Virus record (IMG/VR): IMGVR_UViG_3300029650_000167
Direction: 5' to 3' (one strand)
DNA from: a virus
Lineage: Duplodnaviria; Heunggongvirae; Uroviricota; Caudoviricetes
DNA: 38,587 nucleotides
Made by a program: the position numbers and the translations under genes. Below the pieces are notes generated by a model. It was not told the origin of the DNA. It did not search any database and saw only the letters and a list, made by a program, of their open reading frames with translations. Of this stretch, positions 1 to 38,587 are shown one piece after another; the stretch's first letter is position 1; the number at the start of each line of letters is the position of its first letter.

Positions 1-483
1 CTATCTGGTCAGGGTGTCGTACTGTTTTTCACAGACTCTTCCGGCTTCGGCTGCCCGGTCAGCATACTCTGCCAGTTGTCTGTTTCTCTCGAGAGATTTA
101 CTGAGCACGTCGGCAAGCAAAACTCCGGTGTCTGCGGCTGACGTCCCAGCGCCGACAATGGCGTTATACTGCCTGAGCTGCTCACGGATGGCAACGAGCT
201 GTTGCTGCAACCTGCCAGCGCGAGCGGCAGCATCAAGAGCATCATTGCGCGCCTGGTCGATCCTCTGCTGCGCTTCACGTTCATTGATCGCTTTCTCCTG
301 TTCGTAGTGCTGACGAATTCTCTCATCTTCGGTTTTGCGGTCTTCTTTCGCCTGCGCATACCCGGCGTCGTACTGACGACTGCCGTGTACACTCCAGGCA
401 ACAACTCCTGATATGACCAGAACAGCAAGCACCGCCATGATAATCAACTGTTTCCGGTATGCTTTTACGAATGCCAAGATCAT
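1..483 (-). CDS. i-spanin (Rz-like) lysis protein
   Basis: 160 aa with N-terminal TM segment then charged coiled-coil; start ATG overlaps endolysin stop (ATGA); a lipoprotein ORF is embedded in another frame. Confidence 0.6.
9..245 (-). CDS. o-spanin (Rz1-like) outer-membrane lipoprotein, embedded in Rz
   Basis: Internal start [13 protein letters not shown] gives a signal peptide with lipobox LAGC, followed by a Pro/Ser-rich short mature region; entirely inside the Rz ORF. Confidence 0.5.
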   Translation of the reverse strand: MMLLMLPLALAGCSNSSLPSVSSSGSITPLSALGRQPQTPEFCLPTCSVNLSRETDNWQSMLTGQPKPEESVKNSTTP

Positions 484-4587: not shown

Positions 4588-4602
4588 TTACCTTTCAGGT
4601 AA
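4588..4602. promoter_or_regulatory. operator-like palindrome TTACC-TTTCA-GGTAA
   Basis: Perfect 15-bp inverted repeat in the divergent region between tailspike and the LexA-box gene; on minus strand flanked by TTGCAA and TATCTA at -35/-10 spacing. Confidence 0.6.
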
Positions 4603-4641
4603 TTTGCAAAACGTGCTGGATAGCAAACAAATTATTTGCTA

Positions 4642-4657
4642 CTGTATAAATATACAG
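4642..4657 (+). promoter_or_regulatory. LexA box (SOS box) CTGT-N8-ACAG
   Basis: TACTGTATAAATATACAGTT at 4640-4659 matches the enterobacterial LexA consensus TACTGTATATATATACAGTA at 18 of 20 positions; overlaps an extended -10-like TGtATAAAT; 22 nt upstream of SD GGAG. Confidence 0.75.
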
Positions 4658-4678
4658 TTATTGCATGGAGAAGATAAG

Positions 4679-4936
4679 ATGCAGCAGTATCACTATCCAC
4701 TGGAAGACGGATTTACCGAAAGGATTCACACGCCGGGAGGCGTCAGGTCACTGGTGGAGGGATCGCATTTGATGAAATTACTCCGGGATCTCGATAAGGA
4801 TGGATTTAATGTCGATGGCCCACTTGCCGAACTGACTGCACTGATTAACTACGTCACCAGCTCACAGATGTCTATGCAGGATCTGCAAACACATCTCGAC
4901 TATTGTGCCGAACAATTACGAAAGCAAACCAGATAA
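4679..4936 (+). CDS. small LexA-controlled protein, antirepressor-like domain (paralog of Bro-N protein C-terminus)
   Basis: 85 aa; SD GGAG 8 nt upstream; residues HTPGGVRSLVEGSHLMKLL...DGFNVDGPLAELT...QTH align with the C-terminus of ORF 5252-5962. Confidence 0.5.
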   Translation: MQQYHYPLEDGFTERIHTPGGVRSLVEGSHLMKLLRDLDKDGFNVDGPLAELTALINYVTSSQMSMQDLQTHLDYCAEQLRKQTR

Positions 4937-4967
4937 GGTTTGCAATTACCAAGTGGAGTGCTTATAT

Positions 4968-4982
4968 TTACCTTTGCGGTAA
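4968..4982. promoter_or_regulatory. operator-like palindrome TTACC-TTTGC-GGTAA
   Basis: Perfect match to the dispersed 15-bp motif, between the small LexA-box gene and the Bro-N gene. Confidence 0.5.
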
Positions 4983-5062
4983 ATTTACATCGCACTCCTC
5001 TTGTGCCATAGTAATCAGGCACTGGCAAAATCCAGTGCCGGGATTGGCGTCCCGAGTTACTA

Positions 5063-5085
5063 AGTGGCGCATACCACGCCAGACG
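5063..5085 (+). terminator. rho-independent terminator-like hairpin
   Basis: Stem ACCACG/CGTGGT with 5-nt loop followed by seven T. Confidence 0.45.
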
Positions 5086-5251
5086 TGGTTTTTTTATGCG
5101 TTAAGCACAGCTATATCCGAATTATGGTGGGCTGGGCAGGGGTCCGAAAGGACGCCGGTACCACTTAGGCCGGTACGCCAACCTTGTCCAGTTCACCACC
5201 AGTAATTGGCGTTGCGGTGGTGATTAAAATCACTAAGTGGAGATAACCACC

Positions 5252-5962
5252 ATGGCTAATGCTCAAACTGCCATCTTCAAATTTGAATCTGTTAACCCTA
5301 TCCGTTCCATCATTATCGATGGCCAACCATGGTTTGTAGCCCAAGACGTTTGTAGTGCGCTGCGCATCCAAAACGTCACCCAAGCACTTGAAAAACTGGA
5401 TGATGATGAAAGGTCTATGTTCAACATAGGGCATGAACATCGTGCAATTTTTGACAGCCGAGTAAAAGAGATCAACATCATCTCCGAGTCAGGCCTCTAC
5501 ACACTGATCCTCCGCTGCCGCGACGCAGTGACACCAGGCACTATCCCCTACCGCTTTCGTAAATGGGTTACAGGTGAGGTTCTTCCTCAGATCCGCCGCA
5601 CCGGAAGTTACATTAAAAACTCGCTCCCGCAGGAAGAACGCATAAAGATGGTTGCCGACCAGGTAGCCAACGCCACGGCGTCAGCAGTAATGCAGGCGAT
5701 GAAGATAGAGAACAAAACCTACAGTGCCCCACTGAAGCCCGGCTACCGTAGCCTGATTCATTCGCCGTCTGGTGTTCTCGGCCTGACGGAGAACTCACTG
5801 CTGATGAATCTGCTGAACCAGTTACAGGAAGACGGGCACGACGTATCGGGCGCGGCGGCGGAGCTGACCACCATGTTCTGCTACATCGTCGGTGTGAGCA
5901 AATGCCTGCGTGATATCCAGACCCACGCGGAGTACATCAACGACAAGGCTGGGTTCTTCTGA
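5252..5962 (+). CDS. Bro-N domain protein, putative antirepressor
   Basis: 236 aa from ATG 5252 (SD GGAG 9 nt upstream; track shows GTG at 5237); N-terminal FKFE...IDGQPWFVAQDVCSAL...ESGLYTLILRC resembles Bro-N/KilA-N; C-terminal about 70 aa paralogous to ORF 4679-4936. Confidence 0.6.
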   Translation: MANAQTAIFKFESVNPIRSIIIDGQPWFVAQDVCSALRIQNVTQALEKLDDDERSMFNIGHEHRAIFDSRVKEINIISESGLYTLILRCRDAVTPGTIPYRFRKWVTGEVLPQIRRTGSYIKNSLPQEERIKMVADQVANATASAVMQAMKIENKTYSAPLKPGYRSLIHSPSGVLGLTENSLLMNLLNQLQEDGHDVSGAAAELTTMFCYIVGVSKCLRDIQTHAEYINDKAGFF

Positions 5963-5999
5963 CGGGCGGCGGCACAGGGATGTGCCTTTAAAATAATCA

Positions 6000-6029
6000 T
6001 TGGCGATGTGATGTAGATTCGCGTAATAT
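6000..6029 (+). promoter_or_regulatory. sigma70-like promoter (TTGGCG - 18 bp - TAATAT)
   Basis: -35 and -10 hexamers at canonical spacing immediately followed by the operator palindrome at 6029. Confidence 0.4.
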
Positions 6030-6043
6030 TACCTTAAAGGTAA
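6029..6043. promoter_or_regulatory. operator-like palindrome TTACC-TTAAA-GGTAA
   Basis: Perfect motif directly after the -10 and directly before SD AGGAGG of ORF 6056. Confidence 0.55.
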
Positions 6044-6961: not shown

Positions 6962-6973
6962 GTGACATGTCAC
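6962..6973. other. perfect 12-bp palindrome GTGACATGTCAC (copy 1 of 3)
   Basis: Identical 12-mer also at 24567 and 26832; overlaps the TGA stop of the minus-strand ORF 6970-7266. Confidence 0.5.
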
Positions 6974-23867: not shown

Positions 23868-23944
23868 GTGGCATTAGCTCAGTTGGACAGAGCAACCGCC
23901 TTCTAAGCGGTTGGTCGCAGGTTCGAATCCTGCATGCCACGCCA
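23868..23944 (+). tRNA. tRNA-Arg (anticodon UCU, reads AGA)
   Basis: Hand-folded cloverleaf: acceptor GTGGCAT/ATGCCAC, D-arm GCTC/GAGC, anticodon stem ACCGC/GCGGT with loop CTTCTAA, T-arm GCAGG-TTCGAAT-CCTGC, discriminator G and encoded CCA. Confidence 0.85.
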
Positions 23945-24566: not shown

Positions 24567-24578
24567 GTGACATGTCAC
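24567..24578. other. perfect 12-bp palindrome GTGACATGTCAC (copy 2 of 3)
   Basis: 5 nt after the stop of ORF 24143-24562 and before its terminator. Confidence 0.5.
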
Positions 24579-26831: not shown

Positions 26832-26843
26832 GTGACATGTCAC
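26832..26843. other. perfect 12-bp palindrome GTGACATGTCAC (copy 3 of 3)
   Basis: Overlaps the TGA stop of ORF 26840-27181, about 90 bp upstream of the late operon. Confidence 0.5.
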
Positions 26844-32903: not shown

Positions 32904-33488
32904 ATGAAAAGTATCCAGGACGTCCGCAGGCAAAATCTCAACGACTTGATCGACCGTGAATTCAATGGTGTTCAGACGCGGATGGCTGAAAAACTTGGAA
33001 CTCAGGCAAATCTGGTAAACCGCTGGGCTCTTGGCAAGAAGGTTATCGGCGACCAGGTTGCACGAAAAATTGAAGCTGCCGCCAATAAACCCCGTAACTG
33101 GCTTGATATCGATCGCTCGCTTTCTCAGGAAGGTTTTCAGCCTGTCGGCCCAAGCGACATTGGCCAGCTGGCGGCTCACAACCTGGAACGCTGGATGAGC
33201 GAAAGCCGCGACCTTTCAACACAGGGAAAACTTCACCGCGCATCCGGCGTAGCCCAGGTGACAATCAGCCGCCTGTTAAACAATGAGGTCAGCGTTTCCA
33301 TTTCCACCCTGGAGAATGTTGCATCCGCATTCGGGCGTCACGGCTATGAATTACTGATTCACCCGCACGACCCTGCGACCATCAACTATGATCGCTCGCG
33401 CTACGCATTGTTACCCGAAACCGAGAAAGCAAAGATCGAAAGTTACATTGAATTTGTCATCAACCAGAACGAAAAAAACAAACAATAA
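32904..33488 (+). CDS. prophage repressor with tandem XRE-type HTH domains, no peptidase domain
   Basis: 194 aa; two HTH-like segments (TRMAEKLGTQANLVNRWALGKK and ASGVAQVTISRLLNNEVSVSISTLENVA); no Ser/Lys S24 autocleavage motif; divergent from cro-like gene. Confidence 0.7.
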   Translation: MKSIQDVRRQNLNDLIDREFNGVQTRMAEKLGTQANLVNRWALGKKVIGDQVARKIEAAANKPRNWLDIDRSLSQEGFQPVGPSDIGQLAAHNLERWMSESRDLSTQGKLHRASGVAQVTISRLLNNEVSVSISTLENVASAFGRHGYELLIHPHDPATINYDRSRYALLPETEKAKIESYIEFVINQNEKNKQ

Positions 33489-33509
33489 AACCATATTTTT
33501 CAGTAAGTA

Positions 33510-33533
33510 AGCCGCCTTATGGCGGCTTTTTTA
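33510..33533 (+). terminator. rho-independent terminator after repressor gene
   Basis: AGCCGCC-TTAT-GGCGGCT hairpin followed by TTTTTT. Confidence 0.8.
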
Positions 33534-33545
33534 TTGCCTATTCGA

Positions 33546-33560
33546 TTACCTAACAGGTAA
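33546..33560. promoter_or_regulatory. operator OL-like site (TTACC-TAACA-GGTAA)
   Basis: Perfect motif 20 bp upstream of a TTGACA -35 hexamer. Confidence 0.55.
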
Positions 33561-33579
33561 TTTTTTTAACTCATATCTA

Positions 33580-33607
33580 TTGACATCAAACCATATACGC
33601 ATAATTA
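33580..33607 (+). promoter_or_regulatory. PL-like promoter (TTGACA - 16 bp - TAATTA)
   Basis: Consensus -35 and AT-rich -10 at canonical spacing, immediately followed by an operator palindrome. Confidence 0.5.
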
Positions 33608-33622
33608 TTACCTCAACGGTAA
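33608..33622. promoter_or_regulatory. operator OL-like site (TTACC-TCAAC-GGTAA)
   Basis: Perfect motif at the predicted transcription start of the plus-strand early operon. Confidence 0.55.
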
Positions 33623-33641
33623 CAGACCGAGGTAACAAGTT

Positions 33642-33794
33642 ATGCAGTGGAAAATCATCAACGGTTGGTACTGCGTTACTGCATGCGGATTCATGAGCTG
33701 GAAGTTCCGCACCTTACAGGAAGGCATTAAGTGGGCTTTCGTCAGCAAAGAAGCTCGCGATGTGGCCAACGATAACGAGATATGGGAGGGCTGA
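33642..33794 (+). CDS. small protein, possibly cIII-like
   Basis: 50 aa, SD GAGGT 9 nt upstream; MQWKIINGW..C and RTLQEGIKWAF loosely resemble lambda CIII (recalled); below the ORF-track cutoff. Confidence 0.3.
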   Translation: MQWKIINGWYCVTACGFMSWKFRTLQEGIKWAFVSKEARDVANDNEIWEG

Positions 33795-33796
33795 TA

Positions 33797-34096
33797 ATGA
33801 ACGTTAATCAGCAGAAAAATCTTCAAAAAATCATGCTGGCATTCGACAAGGACTACCGCCTGTCAGAACAGCTATATGACCGACAAGTTGAACTGATTGA
33901 GAGCATCCGACTTCATCAACTGTCCTCAACTTTCGACGTTGTAACAGGCAAAGGCGTTCGTCAGGAAGTACTGGAGGCTGCTAAAGACAGCCCTGAGTTC
34001 GAAGAACTGATGGATGCCTATCGGCGAGAGGCAATGGCAATTATCGCCCGCTGGGATCTGGCGGATCAGCTTGATGGACAGAGGGACGCGGCATGA
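33797..34096 (+). CDS. hypothetical early protein
   Basis: 99 aa from ATG 33797 with SD GGGAGGG; precedes the exonuclease gene. Confidence 0.4.
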   Translation: MNVNQQKNLQKIMLAFDKDYRLSEQLYDRQVELIESIRLHQLSSTFDVVTGKGVRQEVLEAAKDSPEFEELMDAYRREAMAIIARWDLADQLDGQRDAA

Positions 34097-34914
34097 AACC
34101 GGGAATTTATTTCGACATCAGCAACGAAGACTACCACGCCGGTGACGGAGTGAGTAAGTCGCAACTGGACATGGTTGCCAAGAATCCGGCGCTTCTTAAA
34201 TGGGTTCAGGCAGCACCAGAAGACGAAGAGAAAAAGTCTGCACTGGATATGGGAACCGCATTGCACTGTCTGCTTCTGGAGCCTGGAGAGTTCGACAAAC
34301 GCTTCATTGTTTCACCGAAATTCGATCGTCGGACGAAACAAGGTAAAGCTGACGAAGAGGCATTTCTTCGTGATGTGGCGGATATGGGGATTACGGTACT
34401 TGATGCCGAGCAGTGGCGGAAACTGGAGCTGATGCGTGATAGCGCAATGGCTCACCCGGCGGCACGCTGGATGCTGGAAGCCCCTGGTTACTGCGAAGCA
34501 TCAATGTACTGGAACGATGAAGATACTGGTGAGTTGTGCCGCATTCGTCCAGACAAATGGCTGAACGAGCACAACGTGATCGTCGACGTGAAAAAGGTTG
34601 CAGATATGGACCGTTTTGCACGCCACATCGAGGAATTCCGCTACCACGTGCAGGACGCAATGTACCGCGAAGGCGCAATGAGGGTTACTGGTCAGCCGCA
34701 TGGTTTTTTCTTTCTTGCCGTGAGCGAAAGCATTGATTGTGGTCGATATCCGGTACGCGTGTTCGAGCTGGATGCGCCGGATGTCGATGCCGGGCACGCT
34801 CTGTTCCGCCGGGATCTGAATACCTATCACGAATGCCGCATCAATGATGAATGGGGCGGCGTGGAAATTATTAAACGCCCTGACTGGGCACGTAAACAGG
34901 ATATGTACGTATGA
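34093..34914 (+). CDS. exodeoxyribonuclease VIII-like (RecE-type) recombination exonuclease
   Basis: 273 aa beginning MKPGIYFDISNEDYHAGDGVSKSQLD, characteristic of the short phage RecE-family nuclease; overlaps the RecT-like gene start. Confidence 0.75.
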   Translation: MKPGIYFDISNEDYHAGDGVSKSQLDMVAKNPALLKWVQAAPEDEEKKSALDMGTALHCLLLEPGEFDKRFIVSPKFDRRTKQGKADEEAFLRDVADMGITVLDAEQWRKLELMRDSAMAHPAARWMLEAPGYCEASMYWNDEDTGELCRIRPDKWLNEHNVIVDVKKVADMDRFARHIEEFRYHVQDAMYREGAMRVTGQPHGFFFLAVSESIDCGRYPVRVFELDAPDVDAGHALFRRDLNTYHECRINDEWGGVEIIKRPDWARKQDMYV

Positions 34915-35792
34915 GCAATGATATCGCAATCACATCACAACCAGGCGCAACTGTAGGTACTGCTGCGGCAATCTTCAGCCCGGAGGGCATGAATCAAATG
35001 GTGCGTTTCGCGGAGTTGATGTCACAAAGCAAAGCGACTGTACCGAAACATCTTGAAGGCAAACCTGCCGATTGTCTGGCGGTGACCATGCAGGCGGCAC
35101 AGTGGGGAATGAACCCTTTCGCCGTGGCGCAGAAAACGCATGTGGTAAACGGAACGTTAGGCTACGAAGCACAGTTGGTAAACGCGGTCGTATCCTCTTC
35201 CAGCCTGCTAGCGACACGCCTGAATTATCGCTGGAGCGGTGACTGGTCGAATGTTAACGGCAAAACAGATAAATCACCGAATCTGACGGTAACTGTGTCA
35301 GCAGTTCTTAAAGGAGAAGCAGAACCCCGTGAGCTTACCATCAGTATGGCGCAAGCCGGAGTGCGTAACTCTCCATTGTGGGAACAGGATCCGCGCCAGC
35401 AACTTGCCTATCTTTGCACGAAACGATGGGCTCGCCTGCACGCTCCTGATGTACTTCTCGGTGTTTACACCCCTGACGAATTACAGGAAACGGCACCGCG
35501 CGTTGAGCGAGACATTACTCCGCAAACGACCACTGCTGCGGGAATGAACAGTCTGATCAACGCTAAACCAGCGAAAAAGCCTGATGAGCAAACGCGTAAA
35601 GCGGATAGCCGTGATCCAGAACAAATGCTGATGGCCTTTACCAGCGCAGCGATGAATTACAGCACTGTCTCCGAACTGGATAAGGCTTACAAATACATTG
35701 CACAAAAACTTTCAGATGATGACGAACTGCTGGCAAAAGCCACCGACGTTTACAGCGTTCGTCGGGAAGAATTAAACGAAACATCTATGTAA
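34911..35792 (+). CDS. recT: RecT-family single-strand annealing recombinase
   Basis: 293 aa with LAVTMQAAQWGMNPFAVAQKTHVVNGTLGYEAQL region typical of RecT; coupled to the upstream exonuclease. Confidence 0.8.
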   Translation: MSNDIAITSQPGATVGTAAAIFSPEGMNQMVRFAELMSQSKATVPKHLEGKPADCLAVTMQAAQWGMNPFAVAQKTHVVNGTLGYEAQLVNAVVSSSSLLATRLNYRWSGDWSNVNGKTDKSPNLTVTVSAVLKGEAEPRELTISMAQAGVRNSPLWEQDPRQQLAYLCTKRWARLHAPDVLLGVYTPDELQETAPRVERDITPQTTTAAGMNSLINAKPAKKPDEQTRKADSRDPEQMLMAFTSAAMNYSTVSELDKAYKYIAQKLSDDDELLAKATDVYSVRREELNETSM

Positions 35793-35841
35793 CCACCACC
35801 GCGGCGCCACGCGCGCCGCACTGCAACCAAGAGAGGTATTT

Positions 35842-36090
35842 ATGAAAGGTGCATTAGGTAAGAAGGAACTCCTGGCGGTGGTGCCACTGTCATGGAGCAC
35901 TATCGACCGCATGGAGCGCGCAGGGGAATTTCCTAAACGCTGGTATATCACCGATAAACGCTGCGCATGGAACCGTGACGAAGTTGAGCGTTGGCTTGAT
36001 GAACGTCAGGCTGCAAGCCCGGCAGAGTTCCAGGGTAAAAAACCTCCTGTTCAGCAACGTGTATATCGTCCCGTGAGCAACGCTGCATGA
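35842..36090 (+). CDS. AlpA-family HTH regulator / excisionase-like
   Basis: 82 aa; LSWSTIDRMERAGEFPKRWYITDKRCAWNRDEVERW matches the AlpA/Xis pattern. Confidence 0.55.
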   Translation: MKGALGKKELLAVVPLSWSTIDRMERAGEFPKRWYITDKRCAWNRDEVERWLDERQAASPAEFQGKKPPVQQRVYRPVSNAA

Positions 36091-36199
36091 GTGTGCTGCT
36101 AAGGCACTGGAGCAAATGGTCAGGATGGTACTTATTCCTGGCCTCTGTTTCAGCATGGCTTTATCTGCTGGCATTAATTTTCAGAGAGGGTTGGATTAA

Positions 36200-36499
36200 G
36201 TGAGAAAGTTAAGCCGACTTGAAAAATATCACATGAACAAGGTTTCAATGCGCAGTCCGTCAAAGATTGTCGCCGTTACTCCTGCGGCGATAGAGATCGA
36301 AAAACGCGCGATTGAAAGAGAGAAAAAAGGGCAGTTCCGCATTGCTGCCCACCTTTGGCTTCAGTGTATGGATGTTGCTTCTGGTGATGTTGAGCGTGCA
36401 AGGATCGCGGTTCGCAGGGACCAATGTATCACAAAAGGTAACGGCCTTCGCCGTGGCGACTATAGCGGCATAGGATGTTGCGGGGTGGTTTATGACTAA
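36200..36499 (+). CDS. hypothetical protein
   Basis: 99 aa with GTG start and SD GAGGG; overlaps the methyltransferase start. Confidence 0.35.
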   Translation: MRKLSRLEKYHMNKVSMRSPSKIVAVTPAAIEIEKRAIEREKKGQFRIAAHLWLQCMDVASGDVERARIAVRRDQCITKGNGLRRGDYSGIGCCGVVYD

Positions 36500-37142
36500 G
36501 AAATACACGCTAATCTATGCAGATCCACCCTGGGCATACCGGGACAAAGCCACAGATGGTAATCGCGGTGCCGGTTTTAAATATCCGGTTATGAGTGTGC
36601 TGGATATCTGCCGCCTTCCTGTGTGGGATTTGGCCGGTGAAAACTGTCTGTTGGCCATGTGGTGGGTGCCAACACAACCACTCGAAGCACTAAAAGTTGT
36701 TGAAGCCTGGGGATTCCGTCTGATGACCATGAAGGGCTTCACGTGGATAAAATGTGGTAGTCGACAACCAGATAAACTGGTTATGGGGATGGGACACATG
36801 ACTCGCGCCAACAGTGAAGATTGCCTGTTTGCGGTAAAGGGAAAACTACCTCCGCGCATTAATGCAGGTATCGTTCAGTCATTTACCGCACCGCGGCTTG
36901 AGCATTCAAGAAAACCAGATGTCGTTCGTGAAAAACTTGTGCAATTGTTAGGCGATGTTTCTCGCATTGAACTGTTCGCCCGCCAGTCGTCTCATGGCTT
37001 CGATGTTTGGGGTAATCAGTGCGAAGACCCGGCAGTGCAACTACACCCAGGATACGCGTTGGATATTGCCGGATTAACAAATGCATTCAGCAATGCTCCG
37101 CTGTCACCAACAGACAACCAGGGGCGGGAGCGTGCAGCATGA
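36492..37142 (+). CDS. DNA N6-adenine methyltransferase, MT-A70 family
   Basis: 216 aa with catalytic DPPW motif (LIYADPPWAY). Confidence 0.8.
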   Translation: MTKKYTLIYADPPWAYRDKATDGNRGAGFKYPVMSVLDICRLPVWDLAGENCLLAMWWVPTQPLEALKVVEAWGFRLMTMKGFTWIKCGSRQPDKLVMGMGHMTRANSEDCLFAVKGKLPPRINAGIVQSFTAPRLEHSRKPDVVREKLVQLLGDVSRIELFARQSSHGFDVWGNQCEDPAVQLHPGYALDIAGLTNAFSNAPLSPTDNQGRERAA

Positions 37143-37333
37143 ACAGGGCATCACCAGCAGATTTAAGGAAATGCCTTGAAACTGCAAACATGCTTGCACA
37201 CAGCGGGATCAGGTTTGTTCCAATTCCCGCTGTCACTGATGCTGAATTTGCAACACTGTCAGCAATATTCGCAGACAAAATTGAATCACTGGCAGCAGAA
37301 GCCGAGATGGAAGAAAATCAGCAGAATAATTAA
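37140..37333 (+). CDS. small hypothetical protein coupled to methyltransferase
   Basis: 64 aa from ATG 37140 overlapping the methyltransferase stop (ATGA). Confidence 0.35.
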
Positions 37334-37336
37334 ACG

Positions 37337-38587
37337 TTATTCCCCCGCCATCCACTTCTCAAACTTCGACGGGGAGAACGGAATCAGATCCGTATGCTCC
37401 CCGTTAATCCAGGAATCAATCATATCGGCCCACTGCTGCAACATGTAGGCGCGCTGTCTGGCGTATTCCGCTTTGTTATATACGGCGCGCACACCTTTCT
37501 GCTCATGTGCCAGAGCCTTTTCAATCCAGTCTGAAGGATAACCAGCCTCATGCAACAACGTACTGGCTGTACGGCGCATATCATGTACAGTGAAGTCCTG
37601 AATATGCTCACCATCTTCATTTATTATTTTCACCGTTCTGTCGATCAGAGAGTTCAGCGCGGCATTAGATAATGGCTTCCGGAAATTGTAACGACCAGGA
37701 ACCAGATATTCACTTCCACCAGCGCACATCTGCAACCCGACCAATATATCCTGTGCCTGTTTAGGCAGGTAAATAACGTGCGCCCGGCTTCCCTTCATGC
37801 GGTCTGAAGGAATTGTCCATGTCCATTTTTTAAAATCTATTTCATCCCACGTTGCATTGGTGAATTCGCCTTTACGAACCATAGTGATAAGCACCAGCTT
37901 TAAAGCCATTTTCATAGTGCCCATAGCACCAATGGCATCCAACGTGTGGAAGAACAGGCCAATTTCTTCTGGTGTCAGTGTTCGCTCTCGTGGTTTAAAT
38001 ATGGCGATAGACGAAGGTTTAATGTCAGCCGCAGGATTAAACAAACCATGACCACGGTCATTGGCGTGACGGTATACGCTGCTGATGATCTCCCTGGCCT
38101 GCACTGCTGTTGCCCGGCCACCGCGTTCGACAATCCGGTCACACAAATCACGAACCATCGATGTGGTAATTTCGGCCATCATTTTGTTGCCAAGAACCGG
38201 AAGTATGTCACGGTCGATCACCGCCTGCTTCATTGCGCGGGTACTTTCAGCCAGGATGACGTGTTTCATATAACTGTCGGTATGTACCGCAAACGTCTCG
38301 GCACCACGAATCTTTTTGATACCGTCACGTTTAGCCGCAGCCGGCGACTGGCCTGCTTTAAGCAGCTTCTTTGCAGCAATCAGTTCTTCCCGCGCTTCTG
38401 CCAGGCTGATACCGTCACGCCCATACTGCCCGATTACCAGTGTTTCGCGGCGACCGTTGATACGGTAGTCATAGCGAAACGAGACCGTGCCTGACGTAAG
38501 CACAGCTACATACAGCCCGTCACGATCGGAGACCTTATACAGTTTGTCCTGCGGCTTGAGGTTTTTTATTTTTGTATCGGTAAGCAC
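37337..38587 (-). CDS. int: tyrosine integrase (P4-type)
   Basis: 416 aa beginning MLTDTKIKNLKP; C-terminal catalytic region with HxxR and conserved Tyr context; start codon coincides with the window edge. Confidence 0.85.
   Translation of the reverse strand: MLTDTKIKNLKPQDKLYKVSDRDGLYVAVLTSGTVSFRYDYRINGRRETLVIGQYGRDGISLAEAREELIAAKKLLKAGQSPAAAKRDGIKKIRGAETFAVHTDSYMKHVILAESTRAMKQAVIDRDILPVLGNKMMAEITTSMVRDLCDRIVERGGRATAVQAREIISSVYRHANDRGHGLFNPAADIKPSSIAIFKPRERTLTPEEIGLFFHTLDAIGAMGTMKMALKLVLITMVRKGEFTNATWDEIDFKKWTWTIPSDRMKGSRAHVIYLPKQAQDILVGLQMCAGGSEYLVPGRYNFRKPLSNAALNSLIDRTVKIINEDGEHIQDFTVHDMRRTASTLLHEAGYPSDWIEKALAHEQKGVRAVYNKAEYARQRAYMLQQWADMIDSWINGEHTDLIPFSPSKFEKWMAGE

Follow-up and report, generated by a model that had tools for sequence, protein, structure and literature searches.

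We analysed a plus-strand operon that lies beside a prophage repressor gene, together with the integrase gene (int) that converges on it, in the IMG/VR virus record IMGVR_UViG_3300029650_000167; the whole stretch of 38,587 nucleotides (nt) is called the window here. The window is a prophage of the phiV10/epsilon15 type and belongs to Uetakevirus, a genus of temperate podoviruses. When positions 33500-38587 were compared with phage records by megablast, 16 records matched with at least 80% query coverage and 96-98% identity, among them phiV10 (NC_007804), vB_EcoP_ZX5 (MW722083; hereafter ZX5), TL-2011b and phiv142-3. Specifically, coverage was 100% and identity 97.5-98.4% for PH444, ZX5 and TL-2011b, and the corresponding values for phiV10 were 96% and 96.5%. 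Salmonella phages of the epsilon15 type were about 80% identical over the same segment, and the first 25 kb of the window gave the same pattern of matches. Note that the site and gene labels of Salmonella phage epsilon15 (NC_004775) used below were taken from its GenBank annotation.

The window runs from the stop codon of the Rz spanin gene (Rz, 1-483, minus strand) to the GTG start codon of int. The phage genome has about 317 bp between Rz and int, with a terminator and attP in this interval, indicating that the window is a prophage trimmed at gene boundaries and that the Rz-int intergenic region is missing from it. A segment spanning int and the methyltransferase gene was present in 554 of 5426 complete E. 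coli genomes. In the best E. coli match (99.0% identity), guaB, guaA, the attachment site and int follow one another on the same strand, in agreement with the experimentally verified integration of ZX5 at the 3' end of guaA (PMC9782041). The attachment region lies beyond the window, and it was seen next to guaA in this 99%-identical prophage as well as in ZX5. The features of the locus are listed in Table 1. The arrangement is already known, being annotated in phiV10, ZX5 and epsilon15. phiV10 and ZX5 have the same gene order as the window, namely repressor, terminator, PL with its operators, gp37, gp36, nuclease, RecT, AlpA, small membrane protein, PerC, methyltransferase, DUF1382 and convergent int. 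As a published phage module found in about one tenth of complete E. coli genomes, the arrangement itself carries little weight.

Table 1. Features of the repressor-proximal operon and of int (positions in the window; HTH, helix-turn-helix; aa, amino acids).
Feature	Position	Strand	Basis or remark
Prophage repressor Rep	32904..33488	+	Pfam HTH_3; two HTH regions
Intrinsic terminator of the repressor gene	33509..33536	+	8-bp stem, 6 GC pairs, T-run
Distal operator TTACCTAACAGGTAA	33546..33560	.	perfect TTACC-N5-GGTAA dyad, 20 bp upstream of -35
PL-like sigma-70 promoter (predicted)	33580..33608	+	TTGACA 33580-33585, 17-nt spacer, AATTAT 33603-33608; 10/12 matches
Proximal operator TTACCTCAACGGTAA	33608..33622	.	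perfect TTACC-N5-GGTAA dyad, begins at last -10 base
50-aa protein, function unknown	33642..33794	+	PHROG 898, E = 1.9e-38; homologue of epsilon15 gp37 and phiV10 p39
99-aa protein, function unknown	33797..34096	+	PHROG 856, E = 1.5e-55; homologue of epsilon15 gp36
RecE-type 5'-3' exonuclease, nuclease domain only	34093..34914	+	PDB 3H4R, E = 1.9e-77; Pfam DUF3799 (PDDEXK)
RecT single-strand annealing protein	34911..35792	+	Pfam RecT, E = 1.3e-31; PHROG 561
GC-rich stem-loop	35801..35819	+	7-bp stem without U-tract; lies in the 49-nt gap before alpA, the sole real gap between genes here
AlpA-family HTH protein	35842..36090	+	Pfam Phage_AlpA, E = 3.1e-5, above curated cut-off; PHROG 66, E = 2e-16
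38-aa small membrane protein	36087..36203	+	PHROG 17484; one transmembrane helix noted in phiV10 record
PerC-family small regulator, 99 aa, GTG start	36200..36499	+	Pfam PerC, E = 6e-7; PHROG 868
MT-A70 (class beta) N6-adenine methyltransferase	36492..37142	+	Pfam MT-A70 (PF05063), E = 2.3e-21
DUF1382 protein, last gene of the operon	37139..37333	+	Pfam DUF1382, E = 1.3e-30; homologue of lambda orf63
P4-type tyrosine integrase, convergent	37337..38587	-	Pfam Arm-DNA-bind_3, Phage_int_M, Phage_integrase

The original prediction, made from the sequence alone, had placed a PL-like promoter with two operator copies after the repressor terminator, and all of these elements were found where it put them. 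The terminator (33509-33528) is strong, with a folding energy of -21.1 kcal/mol and z = -6.28; the phiV10 record annotates a terminator at the same position, and it insulates PL from transcription initiated at PRM. Promoter-like matches alone were not above chance (5 found against 8.0 +/- 2.9 in shuffled sequences), so that the promoter call is based on operator excess and on conservation in epsilon15 rather than on the match itself. The dyad TTACC-N5-GGTAA was counted 13 times in the window, with 0.71 expected and no shuffle reaching this number, and the sites at 33546 and 33608 bracket the promoter in the manner of the Uetakevirus Rep operators, ATTACC-N5-GGTAAT. In an alignment of the promoter region with that of epsilon15, column identity was 69%, and the invariant blocks amid diverged sequence were the half-sites of the distal operator, CTATTGACA, ATTAT and the half-sites of the proximal operator. 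Thus the -35 hexamer and the ATTAT of the -10 hexamer have been kept, despite only 44% amino acid identity between the two repressors, and the epsilon15 record marks the equivalent PL sites as repressor-binding. Rep matched the SPC32H repressor (PDB 5D50) with E = 4e-42, and no peptidase domain was detected in it. The proximal operator covers the expected transcription start. The operon is a Rep-controlled early operon that lies beside, and is co-directional with, the repressor gene.

The operon is tightly packed, ends at 37333 and comprises ten genes by count, nine of which are itemised by coordinates in Table 1. Six genes had been proposed for it at first; the genes for the 38-aa membrane protein, the PerC-family regulator and the DUF1382 protein had been missed. 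Neighbouring genes overlap by 4-8 nt at six of the nine junctions, and no internal plus-strand promoter or terminator was detected between 33609 and 37333 at the scan threshold, suggesting that the operon is read as a single transcript. An Rfam scan found no RNA family within the operon region. The 50-aa and 38-aa proteins are 78% and 79% identical to epsilon15 gp37 and gp32, respectively, indicating that these small open reading frames (ORFs) are genes rather than chance ORFs; the 50-aa product had no Pfam or NCBIfam match. The 99-aa protein encoded after it, whose start was taken from the phiV10 annotation, is 51% identical to epsilon15 gp36. RefSeq annotates a shorter version of the PerC-like protein; we use the full 99-aa form with a GTG start because its N-terminus is conserved from residue 1 in epsilon15 gp31. 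This protein also gave a sub-threshold match to ANR, the AraC negative regulator family (23.6 bits against a cut-off of 32). The stem-loop before alpA folds with -17.3 kcal/mol and a z of only -1.46. Its epsilon15 equivalent is annotated as 'transcriptional pausing', and it is possibly a pause or processing site and not a terminator.

The exonuclease VIII-like and RecT-like pair named in the original prediction is indeed present. PDB 3H4R, the structural match given for the nuclease in Table 1, is the C-terminal domain of E. coli exodeoxyribonuclease VIII, and the nuclease covers only positions 606-873 of the 877 of the NCBIfam exoVIII model. The recT start overlaps the nuclease stop by 4 nt, the two genes being adjacent and co-oriented. 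The pair thus resembles RecET of Rac, in which the RecE catalytic domain is followed by an overlapping recT, and differs from it in that about 270 amino acids of nuclease domain are present here without the long N-terminal part of RecE. In phiV10, unlike the window and ZX5, the nuclease and RecT are fused into one coding sequence of 1761 nt. In addition, the recombination module is mosaic: when window positions 34093-35792 were compared with epsilon15 (L006 4082-6013) and phiV10 (L001 3094-4854), the RecE-like and RecT proteins showed 17% and 27% amino acid identity to those of epsilon15, and the flanking genes 77-86%.

The AlpA/Xis-like gene was likewise found in the operon. Its product matched an AlpA-family structure (PDB 8C3T) with E = 1.8e-11 and is 85% identical to epsilon15 gp33, and PHROG 66 carries the label 'excisionase and transcriptional regulator'. 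On this family annotation, the protein is a probable excisionase (recombination directionality factor), and it is possibly also a regulator of int. By analogy with P4, Int or Xis may also act in autoregulation here.

The int gene is the same coding sequence of 1251 nt in phiV10 and ZX5, and its product is 86% identical to epsilon15 Int. As the original prediction held, int lies on the opposite strand only 3 nt from the end of the operon (last plus-strand stop codon at 37331-37333, int stop codon at 37337-37339), so that the two are tail to tail and int is not expressible from PL. A bidirectional terminator at this junction was considered and rejected, since the only structure there is an A/T hairpin of 6-7 bp with z values of 0.65 and 0.14. 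With neither a terminator nor a stable structure between the convergent genes, transcription from PL probably continues into int in the antisense direction.

The prediction had further stated that int must have its own promoter beyond the window, and this stood in part. The attP core attgagtgggaatgatt lies about 190 bp upstream of int (PMC9782041). We compared this interval in nine phages and prophages from four host genera (E. coli, Salmonella, Enterobacter and Klebsiella), including ZX5 (L002 7610-7800) and an E. coli prophage (L005 4689-4880). From the attP core towards int, the relatives carry a terminator, GGTGACGGTAT repeats, a TTACC-N5-GGTAT dyad and a TATACT motif. The terminator, with a 10-bp stem and a T-run, was conserved in all nine. 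The GGTGACGGTAT sequences are arm-type direct and inverted repeats that overlap the putative int promoter, and the -10-like TATACT stands 39 nt before the int GTG and is invariant among the relatives apart from epsilon15, which has TATAAT. The dyad overlaps this putative -10 in all nine, its half-sites being invariant and its spacer variable; by an estimate from the window-wide rate, about 0.004 operator-like dyads would be expected in 190 bp by chance. Note that the epsilon15 record does not annotate this dyad as a repressor site. A scan for the full promoter consensus found no match, which suggests that the int promoter is weak or activator-dependent.

The best explanation as a whole, to which we give a probability of about 0.88, is that the region is the Rep-controlled early-left transcription unit of a Uetakevirus prophage residing at the guaA 3' end, with int regulated separately. 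In the lysogen, a Rep of the SPC32H type would sit on the two dyads bracketing the promoter and keep the operon silent, since the end of the -10 hexamer and the expected start site lie under the proximal dyad. On induction, the likely route would be that the SOS response removes LexA from its box upstream of a Bro-N antirepressor gene, the antirepressor inactivates Rep and the promoter fires, giving a message of about 3.7 kb that would encode the ten translationally packed genes. int would be transcribed from a promoter of its own beyond the window, within the approximately 190 bp that separate int from the attP core, where the attP-proximal terminator would stop transcripts arriving from guaA (prophage) or from the lysis genes (phage). 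In such a layout, the excisionase would be under repressor control and the integrase regulated separately, for which Phi24B provides an experimental precedent. PL transcripts would run antisense into int, and the methyltransferase would most likely be an early-expressed orphan that modifies adenines in DNA, with RNA as a live alternative substrate.

The proposed route of induction draws on an antirepressor locus elsewhere in the window. A perfect LexA box (4642-4657) precedes a Bro-N antirepressor ORF (5237-5962, plus strand), and two RNAs, isrK (5019-5095, plus strand) and a P1/P7-type C4 antisense RNA (5120-5203, plus strand), scored above the Rfam gathering score directly upstream of the Bro-N gene. 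Three Rep-operator dyads, at 4588, 4968 and 6029, fall within the same 1.5 kb (4588-6043) as the LexA box and the Bro-N gene. Control of the antirepressor thus seems to be layered, with LexA, Rep and an antisense RNA all involved. Overexpression data from ZX5 support the roles of the repressor and the antirepressor (PMC9782041); together with the LexA box and the Bro-N gene, they point to antirepressor-mediated induction rather than repressor cleavage.

The separation of int from the operon resembles the module of Phi24B and PA8, where int converges on the PL-side operon and the excisionase gene stays in the operon (PMC3064807 for Phi24B; for PA8 as seen in its sequence). In Phi24B, the inverted int has its own promoter, pInt, xis is under PL, and int was found experimentally to be independent of CI (PMC3064807). 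Unlike Phi24B and PA8, the window phage has a different type of integrase and a different attachment site. It also differs from Phi24B in the Rep-operator-like dyad that lies on the putative int -10, so that int may not be independent of the repressor here. With regard to the integrase itself, the locus resembles systems that pair a P4-type integrase with AlpA/Vis directionality factors, having Arm-DNA-bind_3 and Phage_integrase domains, an AlpA helix-turn-helix protein and attP about 190 bp upstream (PMC9782041).

Several points weigh against the explanation given above. The promoter, the single message and the antisense read-through are predictions. At the 49-nt gap before alpA, with its GC-rich stem-loop, the message may be processed or a second transcription unit may begin. 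A consensus scan upstream of int in ZX5 found no sigma-70 promoter, the only visible elements being the -10-like TATACT and a poor -35, so that int expression may depend on an activator or be very low; judging from the operator-like dyad, int may also fall under Rep, unlike the situation in Phi24B. Finally, the closest studied homologue of the methyltransferase is almost without DNA activity in vitro (PMC10810198).

The substrate of the methyltransferase is the one worthwhile lead from this locus, given that work on Stx phages in 2023 provides a concrete, testable alternative to DNA. The presence of an MT-A70 gene in the operon had been predicted correctly. The profile match was 76.9 bits against a cut-off of 23.9 and spanned the full-length domain (1-172 of 172), and the DPPW motif is intact at amino acids 11-14 (IYADPPWAY at 8-16), where it aligns with ciliate MTA1-type enzymes and the PA8 enzyme. 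Matches in PDB were to ciliate MTA1-type enzymes and METTL3, with DPPW, S(R/Q)KP and E(L/I)FAR all aligned. With a full-length domain and intact motifs, nothing in the sequence suggests that the enzyme is inactive. We lean, if only slightly, towards an early-expressed orphan DNA adenine methylase as its most likely role.

The alternative that survives best is that the protein is an RNA N6-adenine enzyme which, like M.EcoPA8orf6770P of the Stx2a phage PA8, acts on 16S rRNA and tunes prophage induction, perhaps with a different partner. Over amino acids 1-187, 156 of 187 residues (83%) are identical between the two proteins. DNA homology to PA8 starts at 36491, one base before the ATG at 36492, ends at 37023 and weakly resumes in the DUF1382 gene, indicating that the two phage groups have a common methyltransferase and DUF1382 cassette; as in the window, the pair lies just upstream of convergent int in PA8. 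Gong et al. reported that M.EcoPA8orf6770P by itself is nearly inactive on DNA, dam- DNA included, and that it forms a 1:1 complex with PNB-2, encoded upstream, the complex preferring 16S rRNA in 30S subunits (PMC10810198). The nearest solved structures are also of partner-dependent MT-A70 enzymes. However, PA8 differs from the window precisely in having PNB-2, which was absent here (best tblastn match within the window, E = 8.9), and the C-terminal stretch of about 27 amino acids proposed to bind PNB-2 is replaced after residue 187. The epsilon15 orthologue, at 192 amino acids, is without this tail altogether, and a similar enzyme, M.EcoGV, methylated GATC when overexpressed (PMC10810198). 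We consider an RNA target unlikely on balance.

The PerC-like protein encoded upstream was considered as an equivalent of PNB-2 and rejected, the two showing no sequence similarity. In HK639, Pocitis76, SPC32N and Stean, the genes that overlap the methyltransferase start by 4 nt have differing annotated names and sizes (their sequences were not compared), and no conserved partner is apparent from these annotations; in epsilon15, PerC and the methyltransferase are separated by an extra gene and a 46-nt gap. Given these differing upstream genes and the non-adjacent PerC of epsilon15, nothing specific supports PerC as a partner, and the overlap looks like ordinary phage gene packing. A more elaborate scheme combines both uncertainties, with the MT-A70 protein as a partner-dependent RNA enzyme that has acquired another specificity subunit (its tail being swapped and the PerC-like gene overlapping its start) and int under dual control by the Rep-like dyad and PL antisense transcription; we regard it as distinctly doubtful. 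In SPC32N (L014 437-1504), the orthologous MT-A70 gene is overlapped by a 355-aa gene, annotated as 'DNA-sulfur modification', that is inserted immediately before it, which hints that the accessory genes beside the methyltransferase vary.

For the preferred role as a DNA methylase, avoidance of GATC was considered as a pointer to the target, and the count (138 observed against about 150 expected) was uninformative. The palindrome GTGACATGTCAC had been put forward as a possible target site, and this received no support, as its copies lie elsewhere in the window. This 12-bp sequence has three exact copies against 0.11 expected, at 6962-6973, 24567-24578 and 26832-26843, none of them in the operon region; each copy is apparently intergenic and adjoins a terminator-like hairpin. 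As the gene lies in a repressed operon with no internal promoter detected, sequencing the methylome of an uninduced lysogen would likely be uninformative and would probably yield a false negative.

Turning to int, it could in principle lack a promoter of its own, its transcripts being read-through products of guaBA (in the lysogen) or of the late lysis operon (when the phage replicates). In favour of this, int shares its strand with guaB and guaA in the prophage and with holin, endolysin and Rz in the phage, and no consensus promoter was found upstream of it. Yet the 10-bp-stem terminator stands between the attP core and int in every one of the nine relatives, which argues against read-through from either source, and it is downstream of this terminator that the invariant -10-like TATACT (TATAAT in epsilon15) and the arm-type repeats lie. 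Read-through as the source of int transcription is therefore quite improbable.

The operon had also been described as a mirror of lambda PL. This was borne out as an analogy of layout, the promoter abutting the repressor gene and running co-directionally with it, with dyad operators and with recombination and excision genes downstream. As for descent, the only true homologue of a lambda PL-operon gene found was the DUF1382 gene, which corresponds to orf63 (50% identity, E = 9e-21) and, as in lambda, occupies the distal part. The 50-aa ORF had been called cIII-like, but BLASTP against lambda cIII gave no alignment even at E <= 100; the same was true of Kil, and both identities were ruled out. 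No operon gene had a family match in Pfam, PHROG or NCBIfam suggesting an N, cIII, Kil, Gam, Exo or Bet function. For an N antiterminator with nutL as the first function, the first two genes were without Pfam or NCBIfam matches and belong to PHROGs of unknown function, and no nut-site search was made. Instead of the lambda set of Exo (YqaJ-type), Bet and Gam, the operon has a DUF3799 nuclease, an annealase of Pfam RecT and no Gam match, and the nuclease precedes the annealase as in Rac, whereas bet lies upstream of exo in lambda. Unlike in lambda, int is inverted here, which leaves neither PL-driven int expression nor sib-type retroregulation, and Rep is of the SPC32H type with helix-turn-helix regions only, not a LexA-like cI, and would be inactivated by an antirepressor. 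For all its matching position and direction relative to the repressor gene, its operator-flanked promoter, a small first ORF similar in size to cIII and one genuine common gene, the idea that the operon is the true evolutionary counterpart of lambda PL, with the 50-aa ORF as a cIII-type FtsH inhibitor, is very improbable and appears largely refuted at the sequence level by the lack of alignment to cIII or Kil, the absence of family matches to N, Gam, Kil or cIII, the RecE-type nuclease in Rac gene order, the SPC32H-type repressor and the inverted int. To keep wrong labels from spreading into annotation, the 50-aa product should not be called cIII, the nuclease should be labelled RecE-type and the three overlooked genes should be added.

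Compared with its more distant relative epsilon15, the window shares the layout and the operator half-sites. Epsilon15 differs in having an unrelated RecE/RecT pair, a third operator, a 35-aa gene between PerC and the tail-less methyltransferase, and a serotype-conversion gene where the window has DUF1382.

Outside the operon and the antirepressor locus, Rep operator dyads were also observed far beyond the immunity region. Besides the two at PL, such dyads lie at 4588, 4968, 6029, 23531, 26721/26739, 30459, 30521, 32449, 32786 and 32834, and some adjoin late or accessory genes, for example the one that follows a TTGACA at about 23509 upstream of a tRNA gene. The prophage carries a tRNA-Arg (anticodon TCT) at 23868-23944 on the plus strand.

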